A stretch of 62,342 nucleotides of DNA, filler included, from Platydemus manokwari (taxonomy: Eukaryota): assembly GCA_037951405.1 (NCBI GenBank). It is 6 parts of 6 records of this genome, joined end to end, with 100 filler letters (N's around TTAATTAATTAA, not from the genome) between each part and the next. Parts side by side here need not be neighbours in the genome. Positions count along the whole stretch, not along the records: positions 11,643 to 21,479 come from JBBMOY011198432.1; 5 more parts are not named here. One strand, given 5' to 3'. Position numbers and translations under genes: made by a program. Positions 4,400 to 56,796 of the stretch are shown here, piece by piece (within the stretch, counting starts at the first letter, position 1; each line of letters begins with the position of its first letter). The notes below the pieces were generated by a model, which saw only the letters and a list, made by a program, of their open reading frames with translations, made no database searches and was not told where the DNA came from.

Positions 4400-7300
4400 C
4401 GAATAAAATTATAGTTGACCAATAGTAAGGTAGATTTGATATTAAGTTGAGGAGAATTTGAGGTTGAGAGTGTTAAATAAGATCAAAAGTCACAAAAAGC
4501 ACTGGTTTGACACATTGTAACCATTGTTTCGAAATTCTACATAAGCATAGGGTTACACAGCTATACAATATTTAATAGTGTGTTAATAGGATGAGCAATA
4601 TCTGAGCAAATTTGTATAATTTTCTATAGTAATTTGCAAGTTCGAGAAAAGATCTAACTTCATCAACAATGGCTGTAATCAGAAATTTTAGAATTATTTC
4701 TACTCACGCTGGGTTTGGTTTCAAATCTTTTCTAGAAATGTTATGACCAATGTGTGTGACTCCTGACTTGTCCCAATCGCATTTTGAATCTCTAGAGTTC
4801 AAGTTTGCTAATTTGAATATTTTAAATACTTTTTCTATATCAACTAAATGTTCTTTAAAATCTTTAGAAAAATATTGATATCATCAATATGCACCATTGC
4901 AAATGTGACATCCTTGAGTATAAAGTCAATAGCTGTTTGAAAGATTGTAGAAGCTTTTGTTAAACCAAATGATATGACATTGAATTAAAATAAGCCATCA
5001 TCATCGATAAACGATGTTTACAATTTAGCCTACTCAATTGCAAATTGACAATATACTTTGTTTAAGTCAATTGTAGAAAATATTTGGGAATTTTCTGTTT
5101 TATCATAAATAATTAGTGAAAGAGATAATGGGTGACTGCACTTAACTTTCGATAGTTCACATACCATTTGATGCTACAATATTTCTTTTTTACCAATACC
5201 ATTGGAAATCCCCATGCAGTAAACTAGGTCATAAGATATTATTCTCAAATATTTATTGTTTTTGTTTTCCGCTGTCTTCCAAGTGAGCATATGGTATACA
5301 GTATGGTCTGAATCTCATGTCTTCTTGTCTACTAACAATGGCATTACATGTTCTACTACATGAGTACTACCTACATAAAATTATTGTCTAGCTATTATTT
5401 CCCCAGCAATTTCAATTTCACTTTTTGATTTTCATTTATAATGTGGATATCAATTTTTTATATTATCATATTTTTTATTTTGATTTTATCAACAGACTGA
5501 TCAACATTAGATATGGTTGATGATGAGAACTGGAATTTAGCGTTATAGTTGTATTTTCAAAATTAGTTAAACGAGCAGATATCCTTTGATTCTCTATTAG
5601 TACTAATTCACAAATGATTCATTTCATATTTTTGTATGAACTGTTGATTTGGTTCAAATAATAAGCATCCTTTGTCAGATTCGCGTGTGCTAGCATAGTA
5701 TACAACCACTGAACGTATGGGTTTAGTCAACATACTATCTAAATACACTTCATTCGATTTATACATTGACTTGTCCGAGAAGGCTTCGACAAAATTTCAT
5801 GTTCGTAAATCCAATGCTATATTTCTTCGTTGTTATAGTATATCCATTCCTAAAAAGTATTTGAATGCACAGCCTTTCATTATAACTAAAATGTTCTGCA
5901 TTATTTCCCCTGTCATTTTAATATTAACCACAATGATTTCTACAATTTGTGGTGTCGATCCTATTATTGTTTTCATACTTTCTTCTATCCGAACTATATT
6001 TCTTCTTTTTGTGTTAGAAATCCCTTTATATTATTTTAATACTTAATCCTGACTCAATCATTGTATCAACTTGTTTGTAATTTAACTTAATTCGTGTGGA
6101 AAATGTTAGACACTTATGCGCTAGTGTCATATACGTGTGAGCCAGGTTAATACCAATTGATTTCTTTTTCTCTACACTCCAATTTACTTCTGGTATTTCC
6201 TATAAGAGAGGTTTCATTTCTTTCAGTTCTCTCAAAGAATAAAATGATGCTGGTGATTTAAATTTTACTGATATAAATAAATCATTTAAACGTGATTCAT
6301 TTTTGTTCTCTAATCGTTCTAATCTTAATAGGGTTCCTGATTCTTCCCAATTGGGTACTGATATATCTGAATTCGTCATTATTTTTTTCATCATCACCTG
6401 AGTTAAAGTCATTCTTTTCCTCATTCGGTTGGTAATTGTCCGTAATCAAACATGAGCTGAATTTCACTTTTCTTTTATTTCTTATTTCAGATTTAATTAT
6501 ATTCATTTCTTCTTACTGATGATTAATTATAAAGAATTTATTTAACTAAAAACGGAACATATCCTAAAATTATTTTCCACGAAACACCTATATATATACA
6601 ATAAGTAGACAATATCTGTTTAAATAGAACTTTTGTAAATGTAAAAAAAAACATACACTCCAATCAATACGATGGAGGCTAACAAATGAATAAGAACTTT
6701 TCCAAAATTTTCTCATGGCATATAGAGTTGCTTTTTATTAATGATAAGAGCTTAGCAAGTACTTTAAATTGGCTTGTCAACTTCCCTTTGATAGCAATAC
6801 GTTCTCTTTTTGATTGAAACAGTAGGTTAAATCTGACCCCGATCAGATCTCTTGGTAAATGCATTCCAGTAGCTGCTGAATAATTTAAAGATGTTAAATT
6901 TATTAAGCATCTCAATTTAGTTCTTACTTCTCCGAAAGGTTAATTATATTTCTATTTGACAGTGAAATCCAATCATTAGAGGTTATTCTATATAACGGAC
7001 TTAAGATGGAGTTAAACTCTCAGCTTATGGGTTTCTTCCTTTTATCCAAGATGATTCGAGTTATAGATTCCATAAAAGGCACTTTTCTTTCGAGATTGAT
7101 TGTAAGTTTATTTGTACACGTGTCGTAGTTCATTATTTGTACAGAAATATTTTTGAATCTGTAACTATATAGTACCTAGACTAGAACACAACCAAATTTC
7201 CCATTATAAGCAAATCACAGTTTCTACTGTGTTTGGGTTTGTCAACAACATTGTCATTCTTTTTCAAAGAATTTATTGATTGAGCATGCAGTCATTTAGT

Positions 7301-11542: not shown

Positions 11543-11642
11543 NNNNNNNNNNNNNNNNNNNNNNNNNNNNNNNNNNNNNNNNNNNNTTAATTAATTAANN
11601 NNNNNNNNNNNNNNNNNNNNNNNNNNNNNNNNNNNNNNNNNN
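11543..11642. other. Artificial assembly linker (N-TTAATTAATTAA-N, 100 bp)
   Basis: Identical 100-bp spacer recurs five times; its core carries stop codons in all frames. Confidence 0.97.
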
Positions 11643-11713
11643 ATATCCTATTGATTGATAATATATCAATCAAAATTTGAAATTGTCAAAACGGACATTA
11701 CTTTTCGGATGAC

Positions 11714-12375
11714 CTAATACATTACCATTATGGTGGTCGAGCTAGAAATTACTGTTCCAATTAGCATTATGTTTACGGTGATTTCATTTTGGAGTTTCTT
11801 ATTACTCAAAAAGGTCGTTTTAGTATTGTCTGATGTTCTCGTAACCTTTGTTGTTGTTTTAATAATGGGTTTTGTTGTTGTCTTCTTTACAGAGGGTTCT
11901 AGGACTACTTTTTCTTGATGAATTATGAACATAGGGTTACTTTTTTCATAATACCAGAAATATATATTTTTGGGGTTCTTAATATTAACATTCCGGGTGA
12001 TGATTTTTTCTGTGGAGTTTATTTTATACTGATGTTCGTTTAAATGCACTCTTACTTCAAAGCATTTTAAATCTTCCGAAATGATTTTAACTTGATTTAG
12101 CAACTTTTCGATGAATATTTTTCGGGGTAACCCGGGTATGCCTCTGGGCATTTATCGATGTCTAATAATGAATATTTTTGTTCCCAATCTGGTTTTCCAC
12201 AGTCGTAACCATCTATTCCTGCATCTGCTCCTCCTATTAATCCTACTAGGTACATTGTTAATAATGCTTGGACTATGGTGGTAAATTTAGATTTTTGTTT
12301 AGGCTGTTGTTTTCTAATTGCTTTTCTTCCTTTTGAACTAAGACCTTTCTTTTTTTCAGGTAATTGTTCTATCAT
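11714..12375 (-). pseudogene. Env-like membrane glycoprotein (frameshifted near 12100-12150), N-terminus resembling chuvirus-type/BEL-Pao env glycoproteins
   Basis: Hydrophobic signal TIVQALLTMYLVGLIGGADA is followed by GIDGYDCGKPDWEQKYSLLDIDKC. After a frameshift come KLLNQVKIISEDLKCFEVRV, a Thr/Lys-rich stalk and a hydrophobic C-terminal segment (ITVNIMLIGTVISSSTTIMVMY). Confidence 0.6.
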
Positions 12376-12405
12376 TAATTTAGTCCATCCATTATTTTAG
12401 TTTAT

Positions 12406-15400
12406 TTAATTCTCATATTCATTTGCTATTAATTGCACTCCCCCGACTTTATCAATTATTTGATTATCTATTAGGTTTATAGTTGTTTGCAACGTCGTTA
12501 TCATTTTTCCAGGTGTTTTCTTTTCATTCATTATTTTTATAACTTCCTTAGCTGTTTCCTTATCTGATATTTTATTGCTTATTCGATTTATCTCATCCTT
12601 ATATTTACTCGTGCAATGGTCTAATGTCTTTATATGCAATTTCTCATTGTTATCTAAGGCGCTGGTTTGGCCACTAAGGGCTTGTAAATATTGTTTAATT
12701 TTCTCCTTAACTTCCTCTTTCTGATTAAATTCTTTTATTGCCTGTTCATGTGTTTCATTTTTTTCTAATGCGAGGATTTCGTCACTGAGTGTTTGTGTTT
12801 TATATTTGATTCTTTAGATGGTATATCCTTTTCGTTTAAATTTGTGGGATCATCAAAATTTGTGATTTTATTATTAATTTTATTCTTAACTCCTGGGGGC
12901 CTTCCTTTAGTTTTTCTAGTCGTTGTTTCTTGATCTCTTAATTCCTTATTATTCTTTATTTCTTTTTCTGTTTCAGTTTCCTTTTCTATCTTATCTTCTT
13001 CTCCTTTTCCTTACTCATTTTCTTAACCTATCTTCTTCTATATGTTTTCTTTGAACTTCTTGTTCTATTATTTCTCCATTGTCACCATAATTATATGTTA
13101 TCAATTGATTTATTGGCTCATTTATTACTTGAAACATTCTTGATGTTGATGGCATACATTCTTTTCTTATCATGTTCTGGTAATAATCATATACAACTTG
13201 TGGTATATAACCATAATTATTTTGTGGTTGAAATTGAGGTGGGAATATTGGTTGTTGCTGGATATGATATTCTTTATATATTATTTCTTCTTCTAATTTA
13301 TCTTCTTCATTATTCATTTCCGGTGTTGTTAAATTTATTTCTTCTCGGTATGGGTAAATTATTTTCTTGATTTCCAAAATATTTTGATTTCCAAAGCATG
13401 GATTATGATATTGTCATTCTAAACATCCCATAAAATTTCCTAATTCATCTTGTTGTTTTCTTATTTGCTTATTCACCTTATATATTTCTGGTGATTCTAT
13501 TAATTTCATGAAATCCTTTCCTGATGATTCAGTATCTTCTACATTTTTGACTTCCTTTTTCTTCTTTTTCTTCTTTAATGCTTCTCTTTTTTCATCAATG
13601 CTTTTATCATCCCCACTTACTACTTTATCTATTATTTCATCCAAGTCTACTGACCATTGTTTATTAACTTTTCTTTCTCTTTTTTCTACATTTCTTCATT
13701 TCTATTTTTCCTGATTCATCGATTTTATCATTCATTGTCTCTTCCTTTTCTTCGCATCTTGTATTGGTGCTATTATGTTTACTATTATTACGTTGACCTC
13801 ATCTTCTGATAATACCTTTTTTAGTTCTTCTTCCTCTATTAAAATTCGTTGTTTGTATTTCATTATTATCTTATTTAATCCCCATTCTCTTCTATTTAAA
13901 TGTTGTTCTTCTATTTTTCTCTTCAAATGTTTTACTTCTTTCTTTTTCTTAATTAACTTATAATCCCCTAAATCGTCCCTGTAACTTTTCAACACTTCTA
14001 TTTTTATTATATATATATTTATCTTCTTCACTTATCAACCCTATTTCTATACTATTCCATTCTGTTGGTTCTAAACTATAGTGCCAAAATTGATAATCGT
14101 CATCCAATATCCTCCAGACATCCTCTTTCTTTCCCTTATGCTCATATTTTAATTCTATCCTTCTTGGTATGCTTTTCCATCTTATATATATTTTTCTTGC
14201 GGTAATCCTGTTTGTTTAGATTTCCAGTTTTTGAACCATTTGATGCATTTCCACTTATTCTAAATTCTTCTATTTTTTCTTTCCCCTTATATTTAGTCTT
14301 AATTGGTATACAGGGGCGGACAATAACCATATTGGTAATTTAATATTATCTTCATCGCGAGTAATTCTTTAGTCCCAAGTTCTCATTACTGCTATTATTT
14401 TATTTTTCTAATTTCCTCTTATTCGATAGTATCCTATTTGTTTTTCATTATTCATGAATACTCCTTTTGTCATTAATTCCAATGTTATTCCTAATAAAGG
14501 CTCACCTTTTCTCATTAACATTCATACATCAACCTTATATGTCATTTTGCTGATTCCCTCTCTTTTAAATGGCCAGATTCGATCTATCTCAAATTTTAGG
14601 TAGTCTACGGTTGCTGTATCTTTTACTATTATTGTCTATATTGTTTCATTGCCTGTGTTGTCTATCATTTTAACTTCTATCTCAATTTTGTTCTCCTGCC
14701 TGATTTCTTCTTCACAGATTTTTATATTTATCTTCTACTGTCTCCATGGAACTGCTGTTGTTGTATTTTGTTTTTCCATCATGACTTTTATTTCTATTAC
14801 ATTTATTTCATCTTTCTTAAATATATTTTTTATTTTAATCTTATTATCCACTTGTTCTTGATTATGGTATATAATTATTTTTTCATCATTCTTTTTATAA
14901 AAATATAGTTCCTGTATTGCTTCTTGCACTTCCCTTATAGTTCGAATTTCTAATATTGATTTATATTCCTTAATTCTATCAGTGTAATAATTGGGTTCTA
15001 TAATTATTTTAACTCTGTAATGTGCCCATTCGTCTTCTATTAATGTGATCGATATCTCATTCTTATAATATACATTCAACGGATAATACCAAAATTGGAG
15101 GTCTTCGTCTAAAATTCCCAATTTTCCTAACTCTAATTCTCTTTCTAATGTGTATTTCCTTTCTTCTTGCCTATATCGTTCTTTTCTCCATCTTATTACA
15201 TATTTATCTGGTGGTTTTTCTTTTTGTTTACCCATCCATTTTCTAAACCATTGTATTGATGTACTTTTATTAACTTTAAACCTTATTTTCTTCCTTTCGT
15301 CGTATGTATCTTTTCATATTGTTATTTCTAACTCATATACTAAATTCCCTGTATTTTCGTTGATCCTCTTATCCACTTACTACCATATTTTCCTTCATTT

Positions 15401-17352
15401 ATTTTCTTGTCGTAAAAGTCCATGGTCTCATCATGGCCGTAACCTTTATCCTTATCTATTAGGAAGAAACTTAAGTGTTCTCTATACATGATCAACTCCT
15501 TCAGCCATTAATTCTAATATTTTTCCTATTGTTTCTATTTCTATGTTTGTACAAGTTTGTCCTGATACTGTTCCAACTCTATTCTCTCCAAATTTCCTTT
15601 CGTCTCTCTCAATTGGCCAAATTTGTGCTTATCCTAACTTGTTTATTAGTTTCCTCATCATTTTTACCTATCATTTTAACTTCAACATCAGCTTTTCCTT
15701 TAGCTGCTATTCTTCTTCTACTCCATGCTAAACCTATTGCTGATTGTGTTACTAACGATTGACTTATTCCATATTCTTCTCTATTCATCATATTTATTTG
15801 CTTATTTCCCTTATCTCTTTCTTTTATTTTACTAATTCCATCTTCTGGTATGTATGGTATTTGTATCATTCCGTCCTTAACTACTGCTTGTGGATGTAAT
15901 GCTTTAATAAATTGTTCCTCTGTTTAAACCATGTTTGATCTATTCCTTATTGTTAACAGTTCATTATTTTCATCAGCATAGTATTCTCCTAAACACTTCC
16001 ATCCTAACATTCTTTTACTTCCTTGCATCATTTTAACTTTTCCCCTTATCTTATTAAATTCCTCAGGCCAATCCAAAATTAATAATTTTTTAAATAATTG
16101 TACTGATGTTTTCAACAGTAATGTTTCTCCTTTTATTACCTTTTCCCTGTATTGTCATAGATTATTAATTCAAATTTTCCCATTTTTTCTTCAAATGTAT
16201 TTGTTATTATTTCAGGTTTAATGATATCTCTTCCTTTAAGTCTTTCCCGTTTTTTTTGTTTCCATAATTAAATATATTTTCCTTGCTCACTCCACCTAAT
16301 TAATTTATGTAATTGATATAATATTATTTTAGTCATATGCATTTCCCTTAATTTATTCCTTATCCTAAATTTTTGTCCCACTAAACAATATCTATTATCT
16401 CATTATACAGTATATCCTTGATATAAATTAATAAATTTCCATGTTAGAACTTCAGCTGCTCATCTATAGGCGTTCATTTTTATCATCCCCACATTTATTA
16501 ATTTGTTTTCCATTTTTAACCTAACACATAACCAGATGAATTTTTTTGCCATTGCATGATTTTCCTTGCGTCGTCGTTTTTTCCATTTGCCTTTTACTCT
16601 TATATCCCTATGTTGTAATGTTATTTCTATTATCGTTGCCGTGTTTGGCCTTATATATTCAGATTGTAATATTTGAATTATGATTTTAATTCTTTCCCCT
16701 TCACTTGTATCATCTTGATTTTTAAACCAGTTTAATCTTATAATTTCTATTACTATATCGTTTTTATTTTCATTTAATGCCATACCGTACATGTGTCTTA
16801 ATGTATTTACATTATGCCTATTTTTCTGCCTTATAACACATTCATTCCATAATATATCATTATCCTCATGATTTTTTATTTCTCCAAATTCCTTATGAAA
16901 TTTTTCTAATTCATTCTAAAACTCATTCATATACTCATTTTCATACTCGTAGACATGTGTGTGTTGCTTATATTTTACATGCATCCTGATTTTACGTTCT
17001 TTTATTTCATTATCTTTTATTTCATCTTTTAAATTTTCAAATTCCTTTTTTGGCAATAGCTTTTTTAATTTGTTAATTTTATAACTTCAGATATTGATAA
17101 TATTCTTCCTTCTTTCATTCCTTTTAATGGTAATAAATTTTCTATTAACTCATTCTCTATGTCAATTCTTGATTTTATTTCTTCAATTTCATTGTTTGTT
17201 AATTCACTGTTATTCTCATTTAACTCATAATTTATTATTTCGTTACTATCTTCATTATTAACTATTTCAATATTTTCCTCAACTATCTCGTCATTATTCT
17301 CTATTTCACTAACATATGCAGAACTAGTTTCAGGAAATTCAAAATTATCCAA
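12406..17352 (-). pseudogene. Decayed accessory coding region of the LTR element (unknown function; putative ubiquitin/SUMO-like modules, AT-hook-like motif, charged low-complexity tracts)
   Basis: Near-continuous chain of minus-strand ORFs (17065-17352, 16460-16792, 15924-16115, 15609-15869, 14735-15235, 13732-14031, 13414-13644, 13015-13377, 12406-12639) separated by stops and frameshifts. Confidence 0.55.
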
Positions 17353-17534
17353 TAATTTAAGTGAGATGTTTAATCAGAATTAAATATCAATTTAATTCAA
17401 AACAATTTGAATTCACATTTTATTCAGACTTAATTTTAATTTTATAAAAAATTTAATTAATGTAAAATTAGAATTGTTTATTTAAATATTAGGATTTAAA
17501 ATAGATTGTTTGTGTCTTGACTTTTAGTTCAATT

Positions 17535-18917
17535 TTAATGTGTGGTTTTTAAAATAGTAGCGGCTAACAATTTATTTTCATTAACATCACTATTACAACC
17601 ATTACTATCATCGAATTCGCATAAATCACTTATTTCACTATTACAACTGCTATGATCAACATTATCTTCATTATTATTATCAATTTCAACTTCCTCATTA
17701 TCAATTAACTGCGGGCCACCGGAATTTGCATCAGACTTACTAACCTTAATATCATTATCAACTTCAATTTCTTCATTAGTGACTTTAAATCCCCCAATAT
17801 CAACTTTAAATTTCTCATCAACTTTGAACTGTAATTCAGGTGCAACATTAATGAAATGACTTTCCGTCATCACATTCTCTATTATCTTCTTACTCCTATA
17901 TTGCTCAATTACTTCCTTATTAGCTAACATACAAATTTCCCTATTATTTTCCCTATTTGACCCATAAATCACTGCAACTCTTTTAGCTTTTTGTATTAAC
18001 TCATCAAAGTTTTTATATTCCGATAATGCTTTTAGCCTTCTTAATAGGGGTATTATTCCCCTTTTAAATTGATCTATAATCATTTGCTCGCGACCCTCAA
18101 CAGATACATATTTTCCATAAGCCTTAACTACGAATTCTTTTAGTGCCATTGAATATTCTCCAACACTCTCTCCAACATTTGATATCTATCATTAAATTGC
18201 TTAACATAAAATTCATGTACATCATCCTCCATAACTAATTTGCTTTTTAATTCCTTAACTAAATCCTTATAATTTTTGATTTCACTAAAATTCAATCCTT
18301 GAAATGTTTGTAACGCGTATGATTTTAAATACAATGACAGCCTTTGAAACTGCTCTGCCTGTGCCCAGCTATATGCTTCAGTCAATCTATCATATTCATT
18401 GAAGAAATCATCAAACCCTTCTTGTTTTCCATCATAGGGATTAATTGGTATATATACATTTTTGTTATTCATTATTACTTCATTCATTTTATCTAATGGT
18501 GCTTTACAATTTATAATTATCTCACTATCTATATCAACTTGGATGCCTGTTTCAATTATTTCACTATCAATTTGGGTGCTCATATCTTTACAATTATCTT
18601 TATCAATTATTATTATTATCTTTATTAATGGTGCTTATTTCTTCAAAATTATCCTCTAATACTACTGTAGAATTTGAACTACTTGTTTCAGGTAAATTAC
18701 TACTACTGGGTTCTATCGATTCAATATTATTACTATAATTTTCTTTACTGCTATTTTCTAATTCACTTTCACTACTAGAATAATTTCCAATTTCACTATT
18801 AATTCTTCTTTTTCCTAATTTCTTATTCACTATATCCAAATTTTCTAATAAATTGCTTTTGCATGCGTAACGTAATTGTCTATTGGATTTGTCTAATATC
18901 AAATTTCTTTTATTCAT
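17535..18917 (-). pseudogene. Gag (Ty3/Gypsy retrotransposon capsid), frameshifted near 18600 and 18150
   Basis: PYDGKQEGFDDFFNEYDRLTEAYSW...LSLYLKSYALQTF...YKDLVKELKSK...FNDRYQ, then ESVGEYSMALKEFVVKAY...IIDQFKRGI...NFDELIQKAKR. This is the typical CA N- and C-terminal domain pattern. Confidence 0.85.
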
Positions 18918-19359
18918 ATGCGCTCAATGCGGATTTCAAATTATCAGTTTTATCGCTCAATGCGTCAATTTATCAATTTAATAGCGCTTAAAAATCCTAT
19001 TGAACAGACAAAATTTTGCTTTATGATCACGTCAACCGCCAAATTTTTGAGCCCCTTCAATGTGAAATCAAATTTCAATTAAAATTAAACTACCCAAGTC
19101 TATTAACACTTTTTGCAGATTTTAATCAACACTTTTCGGGGAACAATCAATGCTTATTACGAACAGACTTATTAAGTTATCACTCTCTTTACTAAATAAT
19201 AACACTTAGAGCCGGGTGTAGACCTCTCAAATTGTTAACTTTGTTACTATAAAGTTGAAAACCTTAATCTGTATTTATTCTTTTTATATACCGAAGTTAC
19301 TTATTATGCGTCGCTAAACTAGCTCTCCGGTTCACGCAATAAAAACGCGCTTTAATTAT

Positions 19360-19500
19360 CAAATTTATCAAAAGCTTTATCGCTTAACTTTAATTTCAAT
19401 TTGTCAATATTAGCTCCTCGGCTTAATTTCAATTTATCAAATTTGTCAATAGCTCTTTGGCTCAAATTAACTTTTTCAATAGCTCTTTATCTCAATTCTA
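19360..19500. repeat. Degenerate short tandem repeats in the retroelement 5' leader
   Basis: Recurrent ~30-40 nt unit of the form tcaat(a/t)agctc....gct(c/t)aa(t)ttcaattt. Confidence 0.6.
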
Positions 19501-19922
19501 TTTCTTTTACTTTATCTATTAGGATTCTAATAATTTCCAATTTCACAAATTTACCTATCTGTAACTTTAACTTATCAATTTTTAAATTCACAATTATATC
19601 GATTTAAAAACTTCACAATTCAGCACCAGTTATCCAATTATCGGTCTTGTTCAAATTTAATACTTAATGTTTAAACCTTAAGAATTCACTCAGATTCTCA
19701 AAATTTCACTAATTATTTTCACTTTTACACTAAATTTCTCCTTTCTCAAACACCAGTTGATGTTAACTATTTATGGTTTCAAACTTTTAATAATTCTTTA
19801 ACAAAGATTTCTCCTTACTCGGGCTTACCAATTGATGTTAAATTTTAAAACTTTTAATAACTTTTAGCAAATTTGTCCTCACTCAAAGGTTTATAATTTT
19901 ATTAACTTTTTAAAAGGAATTC

Positions 19923-19940
19923 TCCTCACTCGGGGCACCA
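19923..19940 (-). promoter_or_regulatory. Primer-binding site complementary to elongator tRNA-Met 3' end
   Basis: Minus strand TGGTGCCCCGAGTGAGGA versus the animal tRNA-Met(e) PBS TGGTGCCCCGTGTGAGGA (one mismatch, recalled sequence). It lies 2 nt after an ...ACATCA LTR end. Confidence 0.8.
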
Positions 19941-19942
19941 GT

Positions 19943-21025
19943 TGATGTATTTCAAGCTTGTTAATTTAATTTTTGTTTTAATCAGTCTCAATAAATTACT
20001 ATGATTTTGCTCACGGATCACTGTTGTCTTGATCAATCTCAAATGAGTCTTAATCAAGCCCGAGGTACACTCTATTAAACCTCATTTCTATAACTATATT
20101 TATCTCGCAATCAAAACTATATGAAAATAGAAATGATTGGGAACAATGATCCAAAGTGTGTAATTTAAACCTTTGAGTCTCAATTATGTTATAAATATTT
20201 TGCCTCAATTTATCGATCAACAATGCAACTCCTTCTACAACTAAACGTTTATTATATAAAACCAAATTACAGTTTGCAATACAATATACGCCAAATATAA
20301 AAATGTTGGATCAACGGCTACGCTTACAATTCCAGATGATAGCGATTTATACCTCCTTATCTTGGATTAAAACCGGTTACCAAAGATGTTTTTGAGCACG
20401 GCTCTATATTAAAATGATGAACGAGACGTACTATAGATACAAATCAGTTGTTTACAAAATGATTTAACTTACTAATTGGAAAATGGCAAATGGTATTGAT
20501 ACATTCTATTGACGATCAAATTTTCTAATGAACTTCACGCACAGTGGTTTCAAAATTTAAAATGGGCTAAATGAAATAAAGGGCGAGTTCTGATGTTTCG
20601 AAGTCCTATTTATAGGGAATTTTATTCGTTAGGTTTTAAATGCTTTATCTCGCTACATTATATTTTATTCCCCATGGATTTCCCGATATTTCTAATGATT
20701 TTCCCTTAATTATAAAATTTTATTGTTGAAGATATCATAAATTTGTGTCAATAAAATTTAAATATTTCCCTTTGAATATTATTCTTATTTTATTACTTCC
20801 TTTTAATGTCATTCCAAATGATACATCGTTGATAATTTAAATTAAATATAAATTATTGATATTATTATTATTATTATTATTTACACTTTTAATTTACCGC
20901 TTATCATGAATTAACCAAAAATAATACATTTAAATATATGTAAAAATGTATCAAAAAACAAACAATAAATCGCCTAAATATTCAGACGTTGTTACCAAAA
21001 ATACATCGTTACTTTTAATGTAACA
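19943..21025 (-). repeat. Putative 5' LTR (~1.1 kb; outer boundary tentative)
   Basis: Ends in CA next to the PBS. Contains CCTATAAATAGG at ~20605-20616. Candidate TGTTAC start at 21025. No partner LTR was seen in the window. Confidence 0.55.
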
Positions 21026-21479
21026 AACTTTATTCCTCAGGTGTGTCCAAGAAAATGTTAATTTGTTTGACTACATAGTTAATTAAAACTATTATTATTA
21101 TCTATTTTAAAACTACATTTATAAATAAATGCTTTGTTTAGCTTATAAGTTAGTTTTACAATTTACCCTAGGGGGATTTCAATAAAACATTACAAATAAC
21201 TACGAACAAAAGTATTATTAAACATAAAATATTATTAGAGTGTTCAATGTTATTTTCAGCTTGATTGGCCCAATCACCAACAAAACATTGATAATAATTA
21301 GACATTATTGGAAATATTTTGTCTTTATCTACCTATTCTAACCACTATCTCGTCATAAATCCTTTCATTATATTGAATTATTAATATAAAATATTTCAAT
21401 ATATACAACTTTTCAAATATAATTATACAAAATTTAGCTTCTTAATAAAACGTTATAGAAAACTGAACACCAAAACACG

Positions 21480-21579
21480 NNNNNNNNNNNNNNNNNNNNN
21501 NNNNNNNNNNNNNNNNNNNNNNNTTAATTAATTAANNNNNNNNNNNNNNNNNNNNNNNNNNNNNNNNNNNNNNNNNNNN
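21480..21579. other. Artificial assembly linker
   Basis: Same 100-bp N/TTAATTAATTAA/N spacer. Confidence 0.97.
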
Positions 21580-23053
21580 ATAGGTGTGTGTGTTATGAAT
21601 ATTATGCTTAATGATAATACTCTGCTTCACTATGTGGTTCAAACAAATTCGAGAATAAATAAATCACAACTTTTTGTCAAATCGCATTAAAATTCATGGA
21701 TCATAAATGAAGAGACCTTTTCAGATCAATATATTACTAACTATTGCACGACTTAAGTTGTCATGAAATGTTTAGTGACGGTACAAATGAATATCTGTTT
21801 CTATGAACAAGCTATTCCTTCCAACCAGCCTGGTTAAATTGAGAATGTTTATAAAGCTTTTTCAGAATATATTATTTCCTTCTGTCGTTAAAGTTCGGTG
21901 AAGAGTGAGTGTGGATCCTTAAACCAACCACGAAAGATAAACCTTTTAAGAGAACCAACACTTATTTGTAAGCGTTATTTATTTATAAATATTTTTCATC
22001 GTTGTTTTCACTGGATTATCAAATGATATTTTAATGATCAAAACTTATATTTCACATTAGATTTTAAGAATGGCCAAGCAGTCAGTCTTAAACTGTAATG
22101 AAAGAATCTCTCTCATTACATCACTGTGATAGAAATTTGTATGCTACTGACAATTTATTGAGCATAATCCTGTATATTGCTGGGAGAAATAGCCGTATCA
22201 TTTTCCAAATATTATTCTCTTAGACTAAAATAAAACATTTTCTCGACAATAAACAATTCAAAATTTTATGATCGACACTTGGCCAGAGCTGCTGTATCCA
22301 CACGACAAATAAATTCTCATTTCATTATGACCACACTTACTTGAACATAAAAATTTGCAGCTTTCGAAAATTAACAGATGGCCCATTAAAATTTCTTTCC
22401 ACACACAACAAATGCGATTTCATTTCATCTGTTCATATTACTATAGTTGAAGAATTTGTACCGGTTTTCTCTAAGTTATATTTTCTTATTTTGCTCAATT
22501 GATTTCGTCAGACTCATACAGATCCTAATTTTCACTTAAAAACCTAGCAATAAAGAGTTAGCGGCACTCGCTGATAGCTTTTCTAATGCTTTTAACGATT
22601 AATATAAACAAAATTATCGATTTCATGTAAAAAATTTACCGAATCATAGAATTAACATCAAAACTTATTCCGTTAATTATCATCATTTCCATTTTATTTC
22701 AAATTATATTTATCGATCCCTGGTGTGAAATTCAGAGTTTTCTAATTAGTCGATATCGATATGGGACATCGAAGTTGTGATAATCAACAACTGATATGGG
22801 AGTAAATTTATTTAAAATTTTCCCCCAAAAAGTATTTTGTCTGCACTGCAAATATTTTATTTTATCTTATTGACAGACCACGTAAGAATTTATGATTATT
22901 ATCAAGCTTCTCTGAAGTTATTTTAAATTGATTTTTAAAATAATTTTGATCATAAAAATGAGGATAATAATAACGATTATGTATATATCATTGGTGATGA
23001 GATTTGGTATGGCCAAATTTTGTGTAACTACATTTTGTTCTTCCGTATTTCAG

Positions 23054-26000
23054 CGGTTACGGATGGGTGCCCTATCTTGACATATCTCTACACGAGCCTT
23101 TGTCATCAACCGATTTGGCAGTCTATTCGATTTTGGAACGCAGCTTTTTTCGAATCTCTTGGTCAAGAAAGGGCTAAAAAACCGGAGCCAACGACGTAAG
23201 TTGAAAGTTGTTCTGGAATTTTTCTTAGAGAAAACTAACATAAGTAATGGCATTTTGTGAAACGATTCTTTGTTTAAGAGCAGATTTTAATGATGTTTTC
23301 TTGTTTTTGTCGGATTCCGTGAATTGTTTTCAAATGTGACATCAATATTAACTGCATCCAATTATAAAAGTAATCAATACATCAACTTATCAATGGGAGA
23401 TTATTATTGGAACATATTTCGCACATCATATTATCGTTAAACATTTCGACAAATACATAAAAATTTATGTTTAACAGTGTAGATATTTTTTTATTGAGAT
23501 TTTCTTTTTCGAAGAGTTAACGAATAAATATTAAGATATAAAACCTTGAACGATCAAGCCACCAATCGATATTCAAATGCTTTCATAATCGTATATGAAT
23601 TATTAATGTTTCCACAACACATTGGATTAATGATATATTCTTCACAAGAAACTGAAAACCGAATGACAATCGCTATGTTTCGATATATATTGGATCCATT
23701 AAATAATTTACTAATCCCTGATTCCAAAAAGAAGGCTAACATTGTATTTCGATCGTGTCCTGTCCAGTACAACTTACACGTAACAAGACTCGACACACTT
23801 AACAAAATATCAACCAACACTTGGCTTCTTACTGGCAGATTTGCCAAGAATGGACGCTTTTATGATGTCATCGCACACAATATTAAATAGATTCATTTAA
23901 ACAAATTAATCTGGAACATTCTATTAATTTGTATTTTTTGATTTAACTAAATTACTAACGATTTTCTTTGATAATTTTTCATCGATTATTTATTCGAAAT
24001 CTTTATTATTTTCAAAAAGTTTATTTCTCTACATACTCGACAATATCTATCAAATTAGTTTTTCGTTGATAGTTTAGGAAAAAAAATACGACATTATTAA
24101 AGTATTTATTTGTGAAAATTGATATTGCTTGGTGATATCATTTCAGTCGATCAGGGACGGGAAATCCGTACCAGGAAATAACAATTAACATTCGAAAAGA
24201 ATGAAACATCGTACAAGAACATGCTTTGTTGGTGCCGAGAATGAAATATTGTCAATAGAAAATGAACTGCTGTTGTAGGATTTATTCGTTGACAAATCGA
24301 GACAATTAATATAATCTCTAGATTTTGTTGCTAACATTTCCTTTTATTTATCTATAAAATATTAATCAATGGTGGATTGTGGAAATGCGTTGTGAATTGT
24401 TTCAGTGAATTTGATGTACTTTAATAATTATTGATGCCTAAATAGCAATTTCAATATCTATTTATTTTTAGATAATATTTATTGATATATTGATTTGTGA
24501 TTATTGATTTTTTTGAAATAATATTTGAAATATTGATTTTATTTTTATTTATTGGATTTTAAATATTTTTCCATCATAGTGATGATCCGGAAAAGGCATT
24601 GATTCAAGATAAAGAATTCCAGATAAACGTCGCTTTCGGTCAGTTGAGGTAATCATTGTTTGATTGTGCTCTCGAATTGTTTATCGATTTTGTGAGAATT
24701 TTAAAATGAATCAGGTGAAAAAGATTTGTAATCGGAATTTATATTGAAACAAATATATTATCAGTCCTATTTGGTCAAATATATTTTTCTGTTTTGATTT
24801 TTCAATACTTTTTCAAGGAGTGCTTAGGAAAATATCACCCCGTAAAAATTTAACGAGAAATAATAAAATGATTAACAATATGAATGACCAGGAAACCATA
24901 TTCAACTCTGTAAAATCAATTGCACAGAAAGCTCTGCATTTTCAACTCCAAAATCGCACATTCATTGAGTTCGAAAACATCTCTTTCGTGGTTTTTAATT
25001 CCGAGAAAATTTATCTTTCCATAAAATATTGATTTTATTTATTAATTAAAAATATTTTTAATTTGTCTGCGAAATTATATAAAATCGATATTTTTCTTTC
25101 AGCACTTTCACATGGAACATGGTTGCTCTTGGACTGAGTAGAGAAATCGTTCTTGATTTTTTGAGGAAACAATCCACTGTTGCAAATCTACCAAAAGGTA
25201 TTATCGATTATGTTTGAGAAATATTTCATTATTTTTCAAAAATATTTTTGTCAAGGTTGACAATATCATCATCGTTCATGCCTTGCAATCGGCAATGAAA
25301 TTACTATAAGGATTTAAAATTTTGAGTGAAATTTATCACGGTATCTAGTAAATCATATATTCTTTTGGCTCATTAGTTACTGTTAGAATTGACTGAAGAT
25401 TTTATTGATTTAGTCTGTTCAGTTTTAAGTTTACGGCTTATTCATAAAAGTATATTAATAATAATCGATAAAAACTGTTACCGCCAATTATTTAAAATCT
25501 CCATATCATAGAATATGTGCATTACATTTGAATCGATATTTTTATCGAGAGGGTTTCGTCTGTAACATAAATACACTAAAATTCCTTGAAATCATCAAGA
25601 CATCAAGATTATTATTTTTTGTGCTATATTTTGAAAATTTCTGTAACATCTTCAATTCTCTCATTGTCCACAGTGCCATTCCAAGGGTGCATAGACTGTT
25701 AATTTACGGCGAACTTCCTGAATTTTATGATAATTTTATCTATCAGTGCAAGAAAAATTAACACGACATCAAATAAATAATTTGAAATAAATAATTTAAT
25801 TTTTCGGTATTAAAAATCGATCAAAAGAAGCTTTTAACGATTTCATTTGAACAAGAAACGGTAGCTAGGTGCAAAAACCATCAATTGGTTATTTATATCC
25901 ACTGTTCAGTTGTTGGTCCAGAAAAAGTAAATTTTCTTCTCTTTTCACAGTGGTTGGTGGTCATTTTCATTTACTCATTTTTCATTATTTCAAAATTAGC

Positions 26001-31679: not shown

Positions 31680-31779
31680 NNNNNNNNNNNNNNNNNNNNN
31701 NNNNNNNNNNNNNNNNNNNNNNNTTAATTAATTAANNNNNNNNNNNNNNNNNNNNNNNNNNNNNNNNNNNNNNNNNNNN
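31680..31779. other. Artificial assembly linker
   Basis: Same 100-bp spacer. Confidence 0.97.
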
Positions 31780-34403: not shown

Positions 34404-35297
34404 TTGGGTTGGTGCATAAATTCGTGCGATTTTATTTGTTTCGAAGAAAACACACCAAATTCTTGTTTTAACTGATTTCAGTTATATTCATTCAACTGAA
34501 TTATCTATTTAAATCATTTTAGATTAACTTTCACTTTCATTACCCTCATTAAAATGGAGTGTCAGGTAGATAAAAATCAACATCTACGTAATCTTCTCCT
34601 TTTCTATCAACATTTAAACGATCCAGAAGACACCAGAATGATTTGTTGCTTTTCTGTAGAAAAGGCAGTCAGTAAACGAACAGCACAAAAGTGGTTTTAG
34701 AAATTTAACAGTGGGAATTTTTTTATTTAAACGATGCACTTCGGTCAACTCGACCTAGTCACTTTGATGAATACTGTTTGAACCACCTGATTCATGATGA
34801 TCCGCATCAATCGACACGAGCGCTTGGACTGGATTGTGATCACACCACTATATCTCGACATCTCTAGAAAATGGGAAAAGTTCAAAAGTTTGGATCATGG
34901 ATATCTCGCATACTCAAAGAAAGTCACACAGATCAGCGTGTTTTGATTTCTGCATCGGCAATATCAATCTTTCCTTTCCAGGATCGTAACAGGGGATGAG
35001 AAATTGTGTTTGTATGTAAATTTGAAACACAAAAAACACTCAAAAGCAACCACAACCATGTGCGGTTCGATCAAAAATCACCAAGCTTCTTCATACGTGG
35101 GATTGACAAACTGTCAGACGATAGAAGGAAGTGATCGATTGTGGCGGAGAATATCCCACCAATTGAGACTGATTTTTTTTTCTAATGATTTCATAAATTC
35201 ATTTTGTTATCTGGAATTTTTTGCATGATTTTCATTCTTGATCAGTATGCATTTTTCAGAATTGTAAAAAACCGTACGAACTTATGCACTAACTCAA
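34404..35297 (+). mobile_element. Internally deleted, decayed mariner transposon
   Basis: TIRs TTGGGTTGGTGCATAAATTCGTGCG and CGTACGAACTTATGCACTAACTCAA, followed by TA. Transposase relics: MECQVDKNQHLRNLLLF (from 34554), RTAQKWF, GSWISR (decayed WVPHEL) and RIVTGDEKLCLYVN (~34980-35020). At ~0.9 kb it is shorter than a full ~1.3 kb mariner. Confidence 0.9.
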
Positions 35298-39161: not shown

Positions 39162-39371
39162 TCATTTTCCATAACGCATACTGTTACCAATTGATGAATC
39201 CATGTTTTCTGCTGGTTTAAATTCATATGGATTGATATATTGATATGCCGAAGACGCTAGAAAATTTCGTCGTGGGCTTCTGTATCCTCTTTGGTAATAA
39301 CCACTAGGAGAAGCACATATCATCATAATCCCCACAAAAAACAACAGCACAATGAATTGATTTTTCGTCAT
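39162..39371 (-). CDS. Secreted neuropeptide precursor (69 aa) predicted to yield a C-terminally amidated ...SMRY-amide peptide
   Basis: True ATG at 39371. Signal peptide MTKNQFIVLLFFVGIMMICA, dibasic RR site and terminal RY-G-K-stop amidation/cleavage signal. Confidence 0.75.
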   Translation of the reverse strand: MTKNQFIVLLFFVGIMMICASPSGYYQRGYRSPRRNFLASSAYQYINPYEFKPAENMDSSIGNSMRYGK

Positions 39372-42300
39372 AGGTAATGAATTGATAAAAGAAGCTGTCC
39401 GGATTTTATAGGTGATAGATTTGGATAGCACCAATCAGAGTAGATATTCGAATAGCTAATCAAATCTTACTATTTCCTGGTATTCTAAGTTACATATATT
39501 TTACTGGATGATAAAATCAACTGTTGGGTTCTGCAAATTAATCATTTTTGTTGACAAATGATTTCGCAACTTCAAAACCAATAGGTTTGTATTTAAATCT
39601 ATCACAAACTCTTCAAATAATTATCCAGCCGGTACTGCGTTAAAGAGAGGCAATCTTTACTACTTATTAGGAAATTTACCAGAATTATGATAGAAATAAA
39701 TTGTATTTTGTTCAAATTATTATTCATATTATGTGAACCTCCAAAGCATTTCGTTTAATAAATACAAATATCATAATCTTACATCTTCATGTCGATATTT
39801 TTCTCTATAGTCATAACATGTGATTAAACTATCGCTCCGTAATATTTGATTTTATCTTTGAAACAATGTAATTATATATGCATAACATATATTAAATGTC
39901 AGTATTCATTATTCTGAAAATTAACTTGATTCCAAATTTTTCCAAAAACGATGATGTTTACGTGTTGTGATTTGAAAAGTTCGATATTGATGTAATGATT
40001 TTGTCATTAAAAATTTTAAATGAAAAATTCTAAGTAAAGCAAAAACATTAATGATCATTATCTGAAAATGTGAGTTCTTTCGTTAAATTATTTGCTACAA
40101 AACTTGAATTTCTAGCAGTGTGCTTCTACTAATCTTCCATATAGATTGACAAACCTTGAAAGTGGGATTACTTATACAGATAAAATCTCCTCTCATATTC
40201 TCGCCATTGCTTAATCATTAGGATTAATCGAATACTTTCTTTTTCTTTATCTCTACACACCTACTATTATTTTTGAAACTATTAATCATTAAATCATTGG
40301 AATCATGGTAGAGTGATTTTCTCAGTTTACAGTGATGATTTATCAATTCATTTATCTTGACATGAATATGAAATTATTTGTTTCATAAACCGAACTTCGG
40401 TTAAATTTTTGTTTTAAAATCAACGAAAATATGAGAAACCTAAAATTTGATATGTAAATAAAATTCAAAATTTTGCATAATGGCATACATAAGGGGTGGA
40501 ATTTTCTCAAAAATATAACTAAATATATTTTAATTTTTCAATTCGAATTCCATTTATTAGAACCATTGAATACAAAAAGTTGTTTTTTTGTATTTCGTGG
40601 TCAAATTCATAACGATCAGAATTAAATTATAACTACCCGAAATGGAGATTAACTTTGTATATGTATCATGAAATTGCAAATAATATTTTATCCATCACGT
40701 AATAAAAAATAAAAATTAGAAAAAAATAGGAATCTTAATCTAGCATGCTTATATAGATTAATATTCTTGATTAAATTATTTATTAGGATACATAACATTA
40801 TAGTTCATGCAACTCATGTTCACGAATGTAATGATTAATATTATTGACCAGGATTACTAATAGATTATTATTAATATCAATGTAGTTTGTTTTAATTATT
40901 TAAAAATAGATTTGTGATTCGTATTGAAATTAAAAGAAATCTCAGCCAAACGTTTTTTTTTAATAATTAACTTCCTTTTTTCATTTTACAAAACGACTGA
41001 CAAGAAACTGGGATTGATAACAAATGTAGTTCAAAATTCGAAATATTCTCTTGAAAAAAAGTTAATTCAAGGATATGCTCGAAGCTATCAGTAAATTAGA
41101 ATGGAACAATTTGGTAGCTTTAAACGTTTTTAGATAATATTATTGAATTGGTGAAAGAATATTTCGGTTAATTCTCTTGTTTTTGAACATAAAGTGATTC
41201 CCGATTCGAGAAACAAATCAATTCAATAATTGATATGGTTTTTACAAAATATTTCTTGAGACTGGATAAATCAAAATTGTCTTGTAGTGATTGGAACATG
41301 GTATTAATAAAAAAACAATTCTGCTTATAATTTTAATTATAAAGTAATTCATTAAAATCTTACGACATTTCAGTAGGAAATTGTAAATAAAGAAACAGAT
41401 ATATCCAATGAAAAAATTCAATGATTTATGTGTTATGTTCTTGATTTTGTGAGATCTCGCCTTCAAATTTTTGATTAAAAATGAAAAACTGTGATTATTA
41501 ATCTTGATAAAATCAATTTTTCGATAAGTAATTAAGTGAAATTGTTTTGTTTATAAATTTAAATTTTCTAATTTTGCTTATCCATGTTTAATTTTTACAA
41601 TTTTTCTTATAAAACATGTTTGGGGAAAGAAATGGGACATGACTACCTATTAACATGAAAATTGAATAAGAATCGACCATACGTTCTGATATTATGAAAT
41701 TTCGATTAGAATGGAATAGAATAAATTTATTAAATACATGTTGTGGTGAAATGTTGTATTTTAGTTAGCAACTGGTTCTAGAGGACTTCAGTGACTATGT
41801 GGTTGATTGTTGCAACAAGGATTGCAGCAATTTGGGTTATTGCTGAACTTACACAATAATTAATCGAGATATTAATATTATCTGATGTGTATAGATATTA
41901 ATAACAACGATGACTTGCATTAATAATTTTTATAAGAAACAAGACAAATTAACAAGATATAAAAGAACAATATAGTATGGAAGAATACTTAACGCACAAC
42001 TCAAGTAGTTGGCTGTTCAATATTCACAAGATAGATATTGGAGAACCAAATGCAGGCGACCAATGTTATGAATTGATAAGAGATTAATTAAATTAGTTAT
42101 TTATTAATAGTGAAAATCTGATTATGATAGTGCTTATTAAAAGGTCAATCACTCACAAAAAATCAGTAAACCTCCTTTTTTATTAGATTATATACTATTC
42201 TTAAGTAAGTCATAGGTCCTGTTCTCTTAGATTAAAAAATGTTTTAACAGGTGAATGTTATAAACTGCACTATCCTTATATACACTTTTTAACAGATGTT

Positions 42301-42524: not shown

Positions 42525-42624
42525 NNNNNNNNNNNNNNNNNNNNNNNNNNNNNNNNNNNNNNNNNNNNTTAATTAATTAANNNNNNNNNNNNNNNNNNNN
42601 NNNNNNNNNNNNNNNNNNNNNNNN
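42525..42624. other. Artificial assembly linker
   Basis: Same 100-bp spacer. Confidence 0.97.
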
Positions 42625-45600: not shown

Positions 45601-45704
45601 TTAATAATGCAAAATCTGGCATAATTTAAACTTTTTTATTTAATAATAATTTGTTTAACATAAATTATAATAATATTTTACTATTATTTTAAGCAATACT
45701 AATT

Positions 45705-48700: not shown

Positions 48701-49135
48701 GACACACACCGATGAATTGGGTAAATTATCCGTGTCCGTTTCCAATATTTTTCATATCAACCTCATCTAGTCTGTCCCGAAACAAATGAGCTTTCATGGT
48801 ATTTGACGCTGCGGGCGGCAGTGTCGTTTTTAACTGTGGAACGACGTTGGCCCGGCCAGTTGCAGACTCATGGAGAAATCGATGTTCCTCATCTGCGTAA
48901 ACTCCTCCAACAGGACCTCAATGCTTGTGCTAAGTTGAAAGATGCTTCTGTGAAAGATGATTTTCTTCTGGAGATGTGTCGATTTGCAGGCATCCAATTG
49001 CATTCCGTTTGCTCATTCATTGGCGGGGTGGCGGCACAAGAAGTCATTAAGCTGATAACCAGCCAATATGTGCCTGTCATGCAACCGTTAATGTACAACG
49101 CTATCAATCAAACCACAAATCTCATCGATATTTAG
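45705..49135 (+). CDS. NAE1: NEDD8-activating enzyme E1 regulatory subunit (APPBP1/Ula1). 15 exons, approx: 45705-45751, 45794-45897, 45944-46004, 46172-46202, 46244-46315, 46360-46439, 46490-46709, 46775-46837, 46888-46948, 47868-47983, 48029-48088, 48142-48354, 48400-48439, 48634-48720, ~48771-49135
   Basis: Hallmark motifs [82 protein letters not shown] and [26 protein letters not shown], joined through GT-AG introns. Confidence 0.96.
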
Positions 49136-51893: not shown

Positions 51894-51993
51894 NNNNNNN
51901 NNNNNNNNNNNNNNNNNNNNNNNNNNNNNNNNNNNNNTTAATTAATTAANNNNNNNNNNNNNNNNNNNNNNNNNNNNNNNNNNNNNNNNNNNN
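51894..51993. other. Artificial assembly linker
   Basis: Same 100-bp spacer. Confidence 0.97.
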
Positions 51994-55245: not shown

Positions 55246-56796
55246 TCAGCAACCTTGTAAATGAATCAAACGACTCGGATGACATTTCGTCCGACAAAGA
55301 GGACATTCACTCTAGAATATAACGTCATATTTTTGTAATGATGAAATTATATCATTGAAAAGCGAACAATTTATTCATCATTTACTTGAAACAAAATAAT
55401 AAATAAACTCACGGTGCTTCTAGTGGCATCAATAATACACTCCCAACAGAACACGTGGCCACATGTGACAGCAGTTGGATCACGACAAGGATTCTCCAGA
55501 CAAAGGCTACATTTGGCAAATGCAAAATAATTATCAATATTAGTTTGGGTTTTATATGGAAAGCTGAAAATAATTAGAAATTAAAAATAAGTGTAAGTAT
55601 ATTTCTATATCAATACACCAATTTCTTATATATATATATGTACACACACATATTTCTCATTTAATGACGTTACCTAGTAATTTGGTCACTTCCAGAACTC
55701 AGCTGCCGCAAAATTGTGTGCAAATCAGAAATAGACCTAGCAACATTAATCAAGCCAATAACCTTGAATAATGAAGTGCTAAAGTGATCCACATCAACAG
55801 GTGAAAGTGTTACCTAGAAAGAATATTATAACGAAATAATGATAAATATAGTAAGTGGTATTTGTATTGAAGCATGTCATTAATAGTTTATTTCAAATTA
55901 AATAATGTATTAGGAACAGAAACAAATAATAAATATTAGACAACATTGATAAAGAAGACTACAATATCACAAGATAGATATAAAATTACATATTTAATTC
56001 CCAGAAGACGTTGAGCTAATAGATATCCATCACCAAGTAAATAGAACAACTGCTTGTTGAGATTCTGAAAAATTTTCATGAAAACATTTAATGTTGATCT
56101 AATTTGCTGAATTGTATTGTTTGTGCAACCATAATACAGTTGGAAATATGAATGTAATATCCGAATCACAATTCTACCAAATAAAATTGACAATGATTGC
56201 GAAGCAGCATAACATTTTAGGATCTTATCAATGAGCAATAAATGAGAATAATTAAATGATTAATCTTATTACCATCGGGCTTGGAACATTTAACTTTCTA
56301 ATACCAGTACTTCTGACAGCTATCAAACCAGCATATTCCTCTCCTAATGTTTGTAGGCCTTCAAGATCAATAAATGAATATGTTTATATTTTGTTACTCA
56401 ATTACATAATGAAAAATTAATTATATAATCATTTTCTTAATATTTGGAAAAAGTAAAAACTATAAGATTATAATAAACTCGATTTTATGAAATTAAATAT
56501 GTTTATAGATATAAACTTCATAATACATATGATGAGGAAATAAGTTAGAATTATAAACTTACATCGTGATGTGGTTCCAAAGTAATAAATAGCTTTGCTA
56601 ATTGATTCTAAAATTTCTAGGGCTGTATGCCGATGTTTTGTATCTGTATAAAGTTAGAGCCCGGATAATTTATAACGTATATCAATTTACTTAAGAACGG
56701 ATCTATGACATTTAATAAGATATTTTTTAATTTTTGAATATAAATATAATCTTTTTGATGTGATCGTATTATCAGAGCTCTAGAGGGCTTATTCAT
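55246..56796 (-). CDS. PEX10: Peroxisome biogenesis factor 10 (RING E3 ligase). 7 exons: 56796-56691, 56643-56563, 56358-56273, 56223-55990, 55813-55674, 55563-55413, 55311-55246
   Basis: Spliced product contains IIRSHQKD, IYYFGTT..LQTLGEEY, LFYLLGDGYLLAQRLLGIKY and a C3HC4 RING CSLCLENPCRDPTAVTCGHVFCWECI...ECPLCR. All exon phases are compatible. Confidence 0.95.

Follow-up and report, generated by a model that had tools for sequence, protein, structure and literature searches.

The window analysed here, a stretch of 62,342 nucleotides, consists of six contigs of the Platydemus manokwari assembly with N-spacers between them. On the minus strand of one contig (JBBMOY011198432.1, positions 11643-21479), a decayed retroelement reading path carries a tandem array of six protein modules of three types, A, B and C, each of which occurs twice through an old ~1.01-kb tandem duplication (15700-14770 and 14690-13762). 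A ubiquitin-like (Ubl) fold is likely for types C and A, and less sure for type B and for a possible seventh module. We give about an even chance to the explanation that the element encoded a polyprotein with 6-7 divergent Ubl modules between Gag and a BCL2-like/Env part, expanded by the ABC duplication, and that these modules were integral, non-conjugatable and directed at the host.

The array begins with A1 (15430-15700), a paralog of A2 whose broken sequence runs through several frames, followed by B1 (15080-15340), the paralog of B2, with one stop, and by C1 (14770-15025), the stop-free paralog of C2. The second unit contains A2 (14415-14690), with two stops and a terminal single glycine, B2 (14070-14310), broken over several frames and matching B1, and C2 (13762-14020), again stop-free; all lie on the minus strand. 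A candidate seventh module, module 0 (~15935-16180, same strand, frame change near 16150), was recognised as a pattern by eye and has no significant match in Pfam, PDB or hhalign. An earlier note had described up to four ubiquitin/SUMO-like modules at 14500-15700. All four peptides quoted there are present on the minus strand about where they were placed, module 1 at 15689-15630 and modules 2, 3 and 4 from 15337, 15019 and 14686, and they belong to A1, B1, C1 and A2, respectively. However, the array runs past 14500: A2 is longer than had been stated, and B2 and C2 had been missed. A single frame accommodates modules 2-4 and has 4 stops over its 313 codons; 2000 base shuffles gave 30.7 on average and never fewer than 13. 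Module 1 lies in a different frame, and its peptide is the N-terminal piece of the broken module-4 paralog.

The duplication is recorded at both the DNA and the protein level. Co-linear matches at offsets of 1005-1015 nt join 15298-14767 with 14283-13758, and a DNA repeat with a spacing of 1006 (D15) links A1 and A2. Protein alignments connect C1 with C2 (z 5.6, 0/1000 shuffles), B1 with a piece of B2, B2c (z 6.3, 1/1000), and A2 with two pieces of A1 (A1a: score 41, z 4.7, 2/1000; A1b: z 2.2). B2 is also the top non-self match of a profile built from A2 and B1 (iE 0.003, among 3108 window tiles). Identity between the two ABC units at codon positions 1, 2 and 3 is 114/199, 131/199 and 92/199, a contrast that is inflated by choosing the alignments on amino-acid similarity and that stands in for dN/dS, the window holding one copy of the element; 27 of the 69 identical residues are encoded by differing codons. 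Judged from their sequences, the three types are barely detectable as relatives of one another (A2/C2 p 0.024, weak leave-one-out profiles), and hhalign between module types gave probabilities of 0.12 and 0.30.

The reading path that holds the array comprises ~2,400 codons, with a gag-like part, the array, a BCL2-like part and an env-like part in this order before the contig end at 11643. Over 7.3 kb of the minus strand it crosses 36 stops and 11 frame changes, at a cost of 63.5 compared with 175 ± 8 (minimum 161.5) in 30 block shuffles. This copy of the array is a decayed pseudogene, without present activity. A Pfam search with 21 long pieces from the six-frame translation of the contig gave no family, and for a 1038-residue frame a search of 1.84 billion representatives had no match at E<=0.001. 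A feature of LTR retroelements, a tRNA primer-binding site upstream of gag, is found at 19940-19923 (minus strand), where the 5' end of the internal region would lie: the site agrees with the tRNA-Met reference (PMC1084362, Table 2) at 16 of 18 positions, is unique in the window when up to 3 mismatches are allowed, and has no counterpart in 100 shuffles. The placing of the array inside a retroelement, as the earlier note had it, is supported by this site on the array's own contig but not by a reverse transcriptase, of which there is none at 11643-21479; the RT-like match (RVT_1, E 2.5e-5, Pfam) is on another contig. We rejected linking the array to this RT, at 4500-5500, since the two sit on separate contigs. 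What the array's contig preserves is probably the 5' portion of a giant LTR retroelement in decay, Gypsy-type and Burro-like.

The 5' leader contains short tandem repeats (19350-19495, minus strand; TRF period 39, 2.9 copies; families D1/D2). The region at 17880-18634 (minus strand, frame change near 18190) we take to be Gag capsid-like from its resemblance by eye and its place after the primer-binding site. It is blank in Pfam, NCBIfam, PDB and homolog searches (0 of 218 candidates for its ORF), and a regex search of the three minus frames, with X allowed at one terminal cysteine, found no CCHC knuckle, which decay could hide. On the other side of the array, a helical region at 12370-12720 (minus strand) carries at ~12393 an NNGW motif that we assume to be BH2-like, making the region possibly BCL2-like; Pfam, PDB and ESM Atlas gave no Bcl-2 match, and the Atlas assigned its ORF to no family (recognition 1537). 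The env-like start at 11700-12290 (minus strand, frame change near 12150) was recognised by eye as a hydrophobic segment with a cysteine-containing part, has hydrophobic windows at 12285 and 11764, and is cut by the contig end; it is blank in Pfam, with no Env profile match. The Gag, BCL2 and Env labels, which rest on eye and position, are possible assignments.

Dugesiid planarians harbour the Burro/GYPSM1 elements, which are Gypsy-like LTR elements of giant size. In the parts of a review available to us (PMC6431247), their ORF1 has the order Gag, Ubi2/SUMO-like, BCL2-like, Env, PR, with retrotrans_gag at the N-terminus of one giant ORF, then two or three CCHC knuckles; the accessory domains are MATH, BIR, BCL2 and ankyrin, the first three of them host-regulatory. 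The same text gives PF11976 as the reported family of the Ubi2/SUMO-like motif, describes decayed Burro copies with stops and frameshifts in Dugesia japonica, and suggests interference with apoptosis and ubiquitination. The array's element resembles Burro, as described there, in its long single reading path, its tandem repeats and its decay by stops and frameshifts; with a putative Gag first, then probable Ubl modules and possible BCL2-like and Env-like parts, it would also follow the Burro layout, in which Env is in frame and PR comes after it. Its order would match that of Burro Gypsy polyproteins, and it possibly belongs to Burro; the likeness is one of published domain order, the order here being read from position, NNGW and hydrophobic segments. 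A host gene search gave only a tunicate protein, at 41% identity, which fits a host of animal type. Whereas one Ubl motif is named in the text of PMC6431247, 6-7 modules in an ABC-ABC array are present here; the CCHC knuckle, MATH, BIR and ankyrin were not detected, the last three by Pfam on the array's contig, where Pfam misses the Gag-like part of the same copy too. A Ubl motif in such elements is therefore already in print, and what we describe is an expanded array, a larger version of the single Burro module. Its significance is limited because the concept is published, the fold is unproven and the copy is dead. Within the literature searched, in the parts available, the Burro motif is noted in that one review and we found no study of it; no comparable Ubl array in LTR retroelements appeared among the literature matches listed, and the available parts of PMC8532177 and PMC13238120 contain nothing on Ubl content.

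The beta-grasp fold proposed in the earlier note is supported at the level of leads for C2, C1 and A2, but by no match at a curated cut-off and by no confident model. ESM Atlas, queried with C2 as one of the 6-7 modules, gave a top score of 0.89 to PF00240 (ubiquitin) with recognition 2556; at <0.9 and 133/256 shared features, this match counts as a lead under the rule of the tool itself. The 10 best family-bearing matches all fell in one clan, that of ubiquitin, although one third of shuffled proteins likewise place 10 of 10 in a single clan. The only Pfam match of C1 is ThiS (E 0.018, 16.0 bits against a cut-off of 22.5) and that of A2 is Rad60-SLD_2 (PF13881; E 0.11, 13.0 bits against 23); no module match in Pfam or NCBIfam reaches the curated cut-off. 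B1, C2 and module 0 have no Pfam match, B1 has no Ubl profile match, and neither B1 nor module 0 has support from any tool. Homologs of the B1-C1 ORF were not found (0 of 81 candidates), and none of 10 PDB sequence and profile queries, six module queries and one with C2 among them, returned an entry for Ubl, Gag or Bcl-2. AlphaFold2 reached a pLDDT of 30.4 for the 313 residues as a single sequence, a low-confidence model in which B1 appears as strand-strand-helix-strand, and of 38.2 for C1 with a 4-row alignment. With these models Foldseek found nothing at E<=0.001, and VIA-align gave best Z of 4.7 and 3.9 and listed no Ubl; these blanks are uninformative because the models are too poor.

Instead of beta-grasp domains, the array could represent alpha/beta sequence of some unknown fold that was duplicated, its A-rich codons (I, K, E, N) giving a false impression of the Ubl pattern. 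The low pLDDT values, the four fold searches and PDB queries without a Ubl, and the sub-threshold standing of every profile match are consistent with this. However, for each of three modules the best match, or the only one, was to a beta-grasp family, whereas equally A-rich tiles outside the array gave no such family (among the 32 rows listed of 35 Pfam match rows from 35 tiles), and fold searches on models of such poor quality carry no weight; we consider this explanation quite unlikely. Accepting the beta-grasp fold, the modules might serve the element's own life cycle, as Gag-, RNA- or particle-binding domains or folding spacers. The missing di-glycine and a divergence from host Ubls too great for any curated match agree with such a role, for which coronavirus nsp3 Ubl1, which binds nucleocapsid, offers a precedent in the parts of PMC9938351 and PMC8769549 available. 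We nevertheless hold it unlikely: MATH, BIR and BCL2, the neighbours in Burro as reviewed, are host-regulatory, and expansion to 6-7 diversified copies would better suit a host conflict.

The earlier note had suggested mimics acting as decoys against SUMO-dependent transposon silencing; that the modules are SUMO mimics opposing silencing of the piRNA/SIM-reader kind is possible but, in our view, improbable. The weak Rad60-SLD_2 match of A2 points that way, as does PF11976, which turns up as a lesser family in several of the Atlas clusters for C2 and is also the family reported for Burro; SUMO connects piRNA silencing with chromatin in Drosophila, in the source text available. Yet no module matches PF11976 directly in Pfam, the best Atlas family is ubiquitin and not SUMO, the supposedly SUMO-like B1 lacks profile support, and transposon-encoded SUMO decoys are absent among the literature matches listed, as far as their available text goes. 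A SUMO-specific identity is no more than possible. The other proposal, that the modules are host-protease cleavage tags in place of a missing viral protease, here taken as tags for DUB/SENP enzymes, is very improbable. It would fit the tandem Ubl layout within a polyprotein, the lack of a protease motif on the array's contig, and the end of A2, an arginine-rich strand with one glycine. But no module ends in GG, and none occurs in the array's coding frames; the one GG that the three minus frames contain between 13700 and 16250, at 14115, is out of frame. The absence of a protease is to be expected from truncation, because the contig stops within the env-like part and PR follows Env in Burro, as described in the review; the protease of the array's element is expected beyond the contig end, downstream of env. 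The cleavage-tag idea is therefore unsupported. Pestivirus ubiquitin insertions and polyubiquitin precursors also place Ubl units in a polyprotein, but these hardly differ from host ubiquitin and retain the site of cleavage at GG, whereas neither holds for the array modules.

We thus favour host-directed, integral Ubl modules. A long polyprotein would have carried 6-7 tandem beta-grasp domains between Gag and the BCL2-like/Env part, the array having grown by old duplication of a three-domain ABC unit that presumably stayed under protein-level constraint. As integral, non-conjugatable domains, the modules may have been cut out by the protease of the element as part of an accessory protein, and may have presented a multivalent surface to ubiquitin/SUMO-binding proteins of the host (proteasome or p97 adaptors, DUBs, E2/E3 or SIM proteins); such binding could help the element to evade degradation, silencing or cell death. 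That a family of env-bearing giant LTR retroelements encodes, in these 6-7 domains expanded by duplication, a polyubiquitin/poly-SUMO mimic, a non-cleavable chain-like decoy titrating ubiquitin-chain or SUMO/SIM readers as a counter-defence against silencing or proteolysis, seems to us rather unlikely. Integral (type II) Ubl domains are known from Rad60/Esc2/NIP45, with tandem SUMO-like domains, and from the Ubl array of USP7. The array resembles these in its tandem, non-conjugatable, probably beta-grasp modules without a terminal GG, which would serve for binding; Rad60/Esc2/NIP45 and USP7 are host proteins, whereas the array is encoded by an element, diverges further and stays under curated cut-offs. 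Coronavirus nsp3 Ubl1 and Ubl2 are likewise, in the partial sources cited above, interaction modules inside a viral polyprotein, but they are two separate domains of an RNA virus, and no homology to the array was detected.

If the expanded array was indeed constrained at the protein level, this would suggest an arms race between the element and the ubiquitin/SUMO system of its host. To our knowledge, animal retrotransposons with counter-defence proteins of their own are rarely documented. C1 and C2, as two natural stop-free modules, are directly expressible and testable.

The contig carrying the candidate ubiquitin-like (Ubl) modules (11643-21479) holds all four peptides on which the earlier note based its array, and the frame of modules 2-4 of that array contains 4 stops in 313 codons, compared with a shuffled mean of 30.7. 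The extent it proposed does not stand: its module 1 is a broken A1, and modules B2 and C2 had been overlooked. Self-comparison reveals matches in co-linear order, offset by 1005-1015 nt, with similarity between C1 and C2 (z 5.6; 0/1000 shuffles), B1 and a piece of B2, B2c (z 6.3; 1/1000), and a piece of A1, A1a, and A2 (z 4.7; 2/1000). These offsets and shuffle tests indicate that a three-module unit was duplicated, giving A1-B1-C1 (15700-14770) and A2-B2-C2 (14690-13762) on the minus strand. Identity between the units at the three codon positions is 0.57, 0.66 and 0.46 (199 codons; composition predicts about 0.31, 0.37 and 0.37), a contrast inflated by the amino-acid-based alignment but consistent with protein-level constraint following an old duplication. 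A further candidate, module 0 (16180-15935, minus strand), was recognised by eye only. The regions flanking the array share a 49-nt DNA similarity (15794-15841 and 13461-13509, minus strand; 80%, E 9e-6). A strand-strand-helix pattern seen by eye at 16780-17002 (minus strand) is possibly one more divergent module; profile searches gave no Ubl match there.

The surrounding retroelement has a tRNA-Met primer-binding site (PBS; 18 nt, 19940-19923, minus strand) that agrees at 16/18 positions with the PBS printed in PMC1084362, is unique within the window and arose in 0/100 shuffles. Degenerate recurrences of the PBS and its flank (repeat families D4 and D5, partly identified by eye) occur downstream at 19750-19840 and ~19630 (minus strand). 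A leader with short tandem repeats separates the PBS from a single reading path that begins near 18990, continues as far as the contig end and is interrupted by 36 stops and 11 frame changes (cost 63.5 vs 175 ± 8 in 30 block-shuffled controls). The path represents a decayed ORF roughly 2,400 codons long. Along it, a region that by eye and position we take to be Gag capsid-like (18634-17880) is followed first by uncharacterised stretches and then by the array; beyond the array come a charged region, a helical stretch carrying an NNGW motif (~12393) presumably resembling BH2 of BCL2-like proteins, a hydrophobic segment (12285), and a start that by eye and position we assume to be env-like, cut off by the contig end. 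Searches of Pfam, NCBIfam, PDB, Atlas and homologs did not confirm the Gag, BCL2 and env labels, and neither a CCHC knuckle nor a protease motif was found on this contig.

According to PMC6431247, ORF1 of the giant planarian Burro/GYPSM1 elements (4,873 aa) encodes Gag, MATH, a Ubi2/SUMO-like motif (PF11976), BCL2-like and Env domains in frame, then PR-RT-RH-IN; these elements are termed possible proviruses, have decayed copies in Dugesia japonica, and are suggested to meddle with apoptosis and ubiquitination. Compared by description only, the putative domain order of the P. manokwari element matches that portrayal; no knuckles were found in it, and it is at most a candidate member of the Burro group. 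The array is an expanded, duplicated version of a Ubl feature already known but unstudied, in a dead copy; no description of such an array came up in literature searches on Burro and on retrotransposon polyproteins with Ubl/SUMO-like domains.

When 60 pieces were scanned against Pfam, the sole matches of C1 (ThiS, E 0.018) and A2 (Rad60-SLD_2, E 0.11) belonged to what we take, by clan membership, to be beta-grasp families; no Ubl match was obtained for the other near-complete modules among the five (B1, C2 and module 0). Tiles lying entirely outside the array (35, one of them out of frame) produced 35 family rows, and none of the 32 rows listed named a beta-grasp family. An ESM Atlas search of C2, restricted by the named-cluster filter, placed a ubiquitin-domain cluster first at 0.89 (PF00240 assigned to 100% of its members). 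Recognition was 2556, and 10/10 best family-bearing matches fell in the ubiquitin clan; with a score under 0.9 and 133 shared features, the Atlas itself counts this as a lead. The control region 12409-12813, for which that filter was off, matched no family. Since the family was named beforehand and three different modules indicate it, a Ubl fold is predicted with good confidence for types C and A, and with less for B and module 0. That the modules are not beta-grasp at all would fit the ThiS and Rad60-SLD_2 matches both lying below cut-off, PDB searches without a Ubl entry, and types A, B and C being scarcely related in sequence; convergence of three modules on the family named beforehand argues against this, and we consider it unlikely. 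AlphaFold models reached pLDDT of 30.4 and 38.2, so blank fold searches carry no information; the protein sets searched held no relatives.

The observation of an array is confirmed and extended, and its interpretation partly supported. The idea that the modules are cleavage tags replacing a missing viral protease is not supported: no module ends in GG, the di-glycine cleavage site, so they cannot be conjugated and would be poor DUB/SENP sites, and the protease is expected after env, as described for Burro (PMC6431247), past the contig end, so nothing needs replacing. We regard such tags as highly improbable. A SUMO-specific decoy against silencing seems improbable, though less so, and a role in the element's own assembly, by analogy with nsp3 Ubl1, is unlikely but the least so of these alternatives. 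We give about an even chance to the modules forming an integral and multivalent scaffold or decoy of Ubl type, in which they would bind host ubiquitin/SUMO-binding proteins and might act together with the BCL2-like domain in protecting the element or host cell. Chain-mimic counter-defence by the array, if true, would be a finding of considerably greater interest.

The window is made up of six unrelated contigs, each about 10 kb long, joined through artificial N44-spacer-N44 links (11543-11642, 21480-21579, 31680-31779, 42525-42624 and 51894-51993), so features cannot be linked across them. Only one reverse-transcriptase match was seen (RVT_1 at 4500-5500; E 2.5e-5, which is below cut-off). It lies on a different contig and cannot be tied to the array; it sits in a separate, heavily decayed LTR-type pol fragment on the first contig (4500-6200, minus strand). 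Equally, a host gene encoding the regulatory subunit of the NEDD8-activating enzyme (45693-49132, plus strand; ThiF match, 41% identity to a tunicate protein) is on another contig, and its proximity to a Ubl array is coincidence. The genome is AT-rich (about 27% GC) and animal-type, with intron-split host genes on contigs other than that of the array. Probable host exons at 22939-23196 (+), 25465-25758 (+), 55374-55580 (-) and 58412-58831 (-) comprise myotubularin/SBF2, p300-like PHD, RING finger and HLH-like matches. A small ORF (39165-39434, minus strand) whose start resembles a signal peptide and whose C-terminus resembles an amidation site is probably a neuropeptide precursor; a literature search on it gave no match. 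A decayed mariner-type transposase fragment occupies 34500-35225 (plus strand; HTH_48, E 0.0018), and dispersed direct repeats, 77-95% identical and spaced by about 900 and 2020 nt, occur at 56999-59805.
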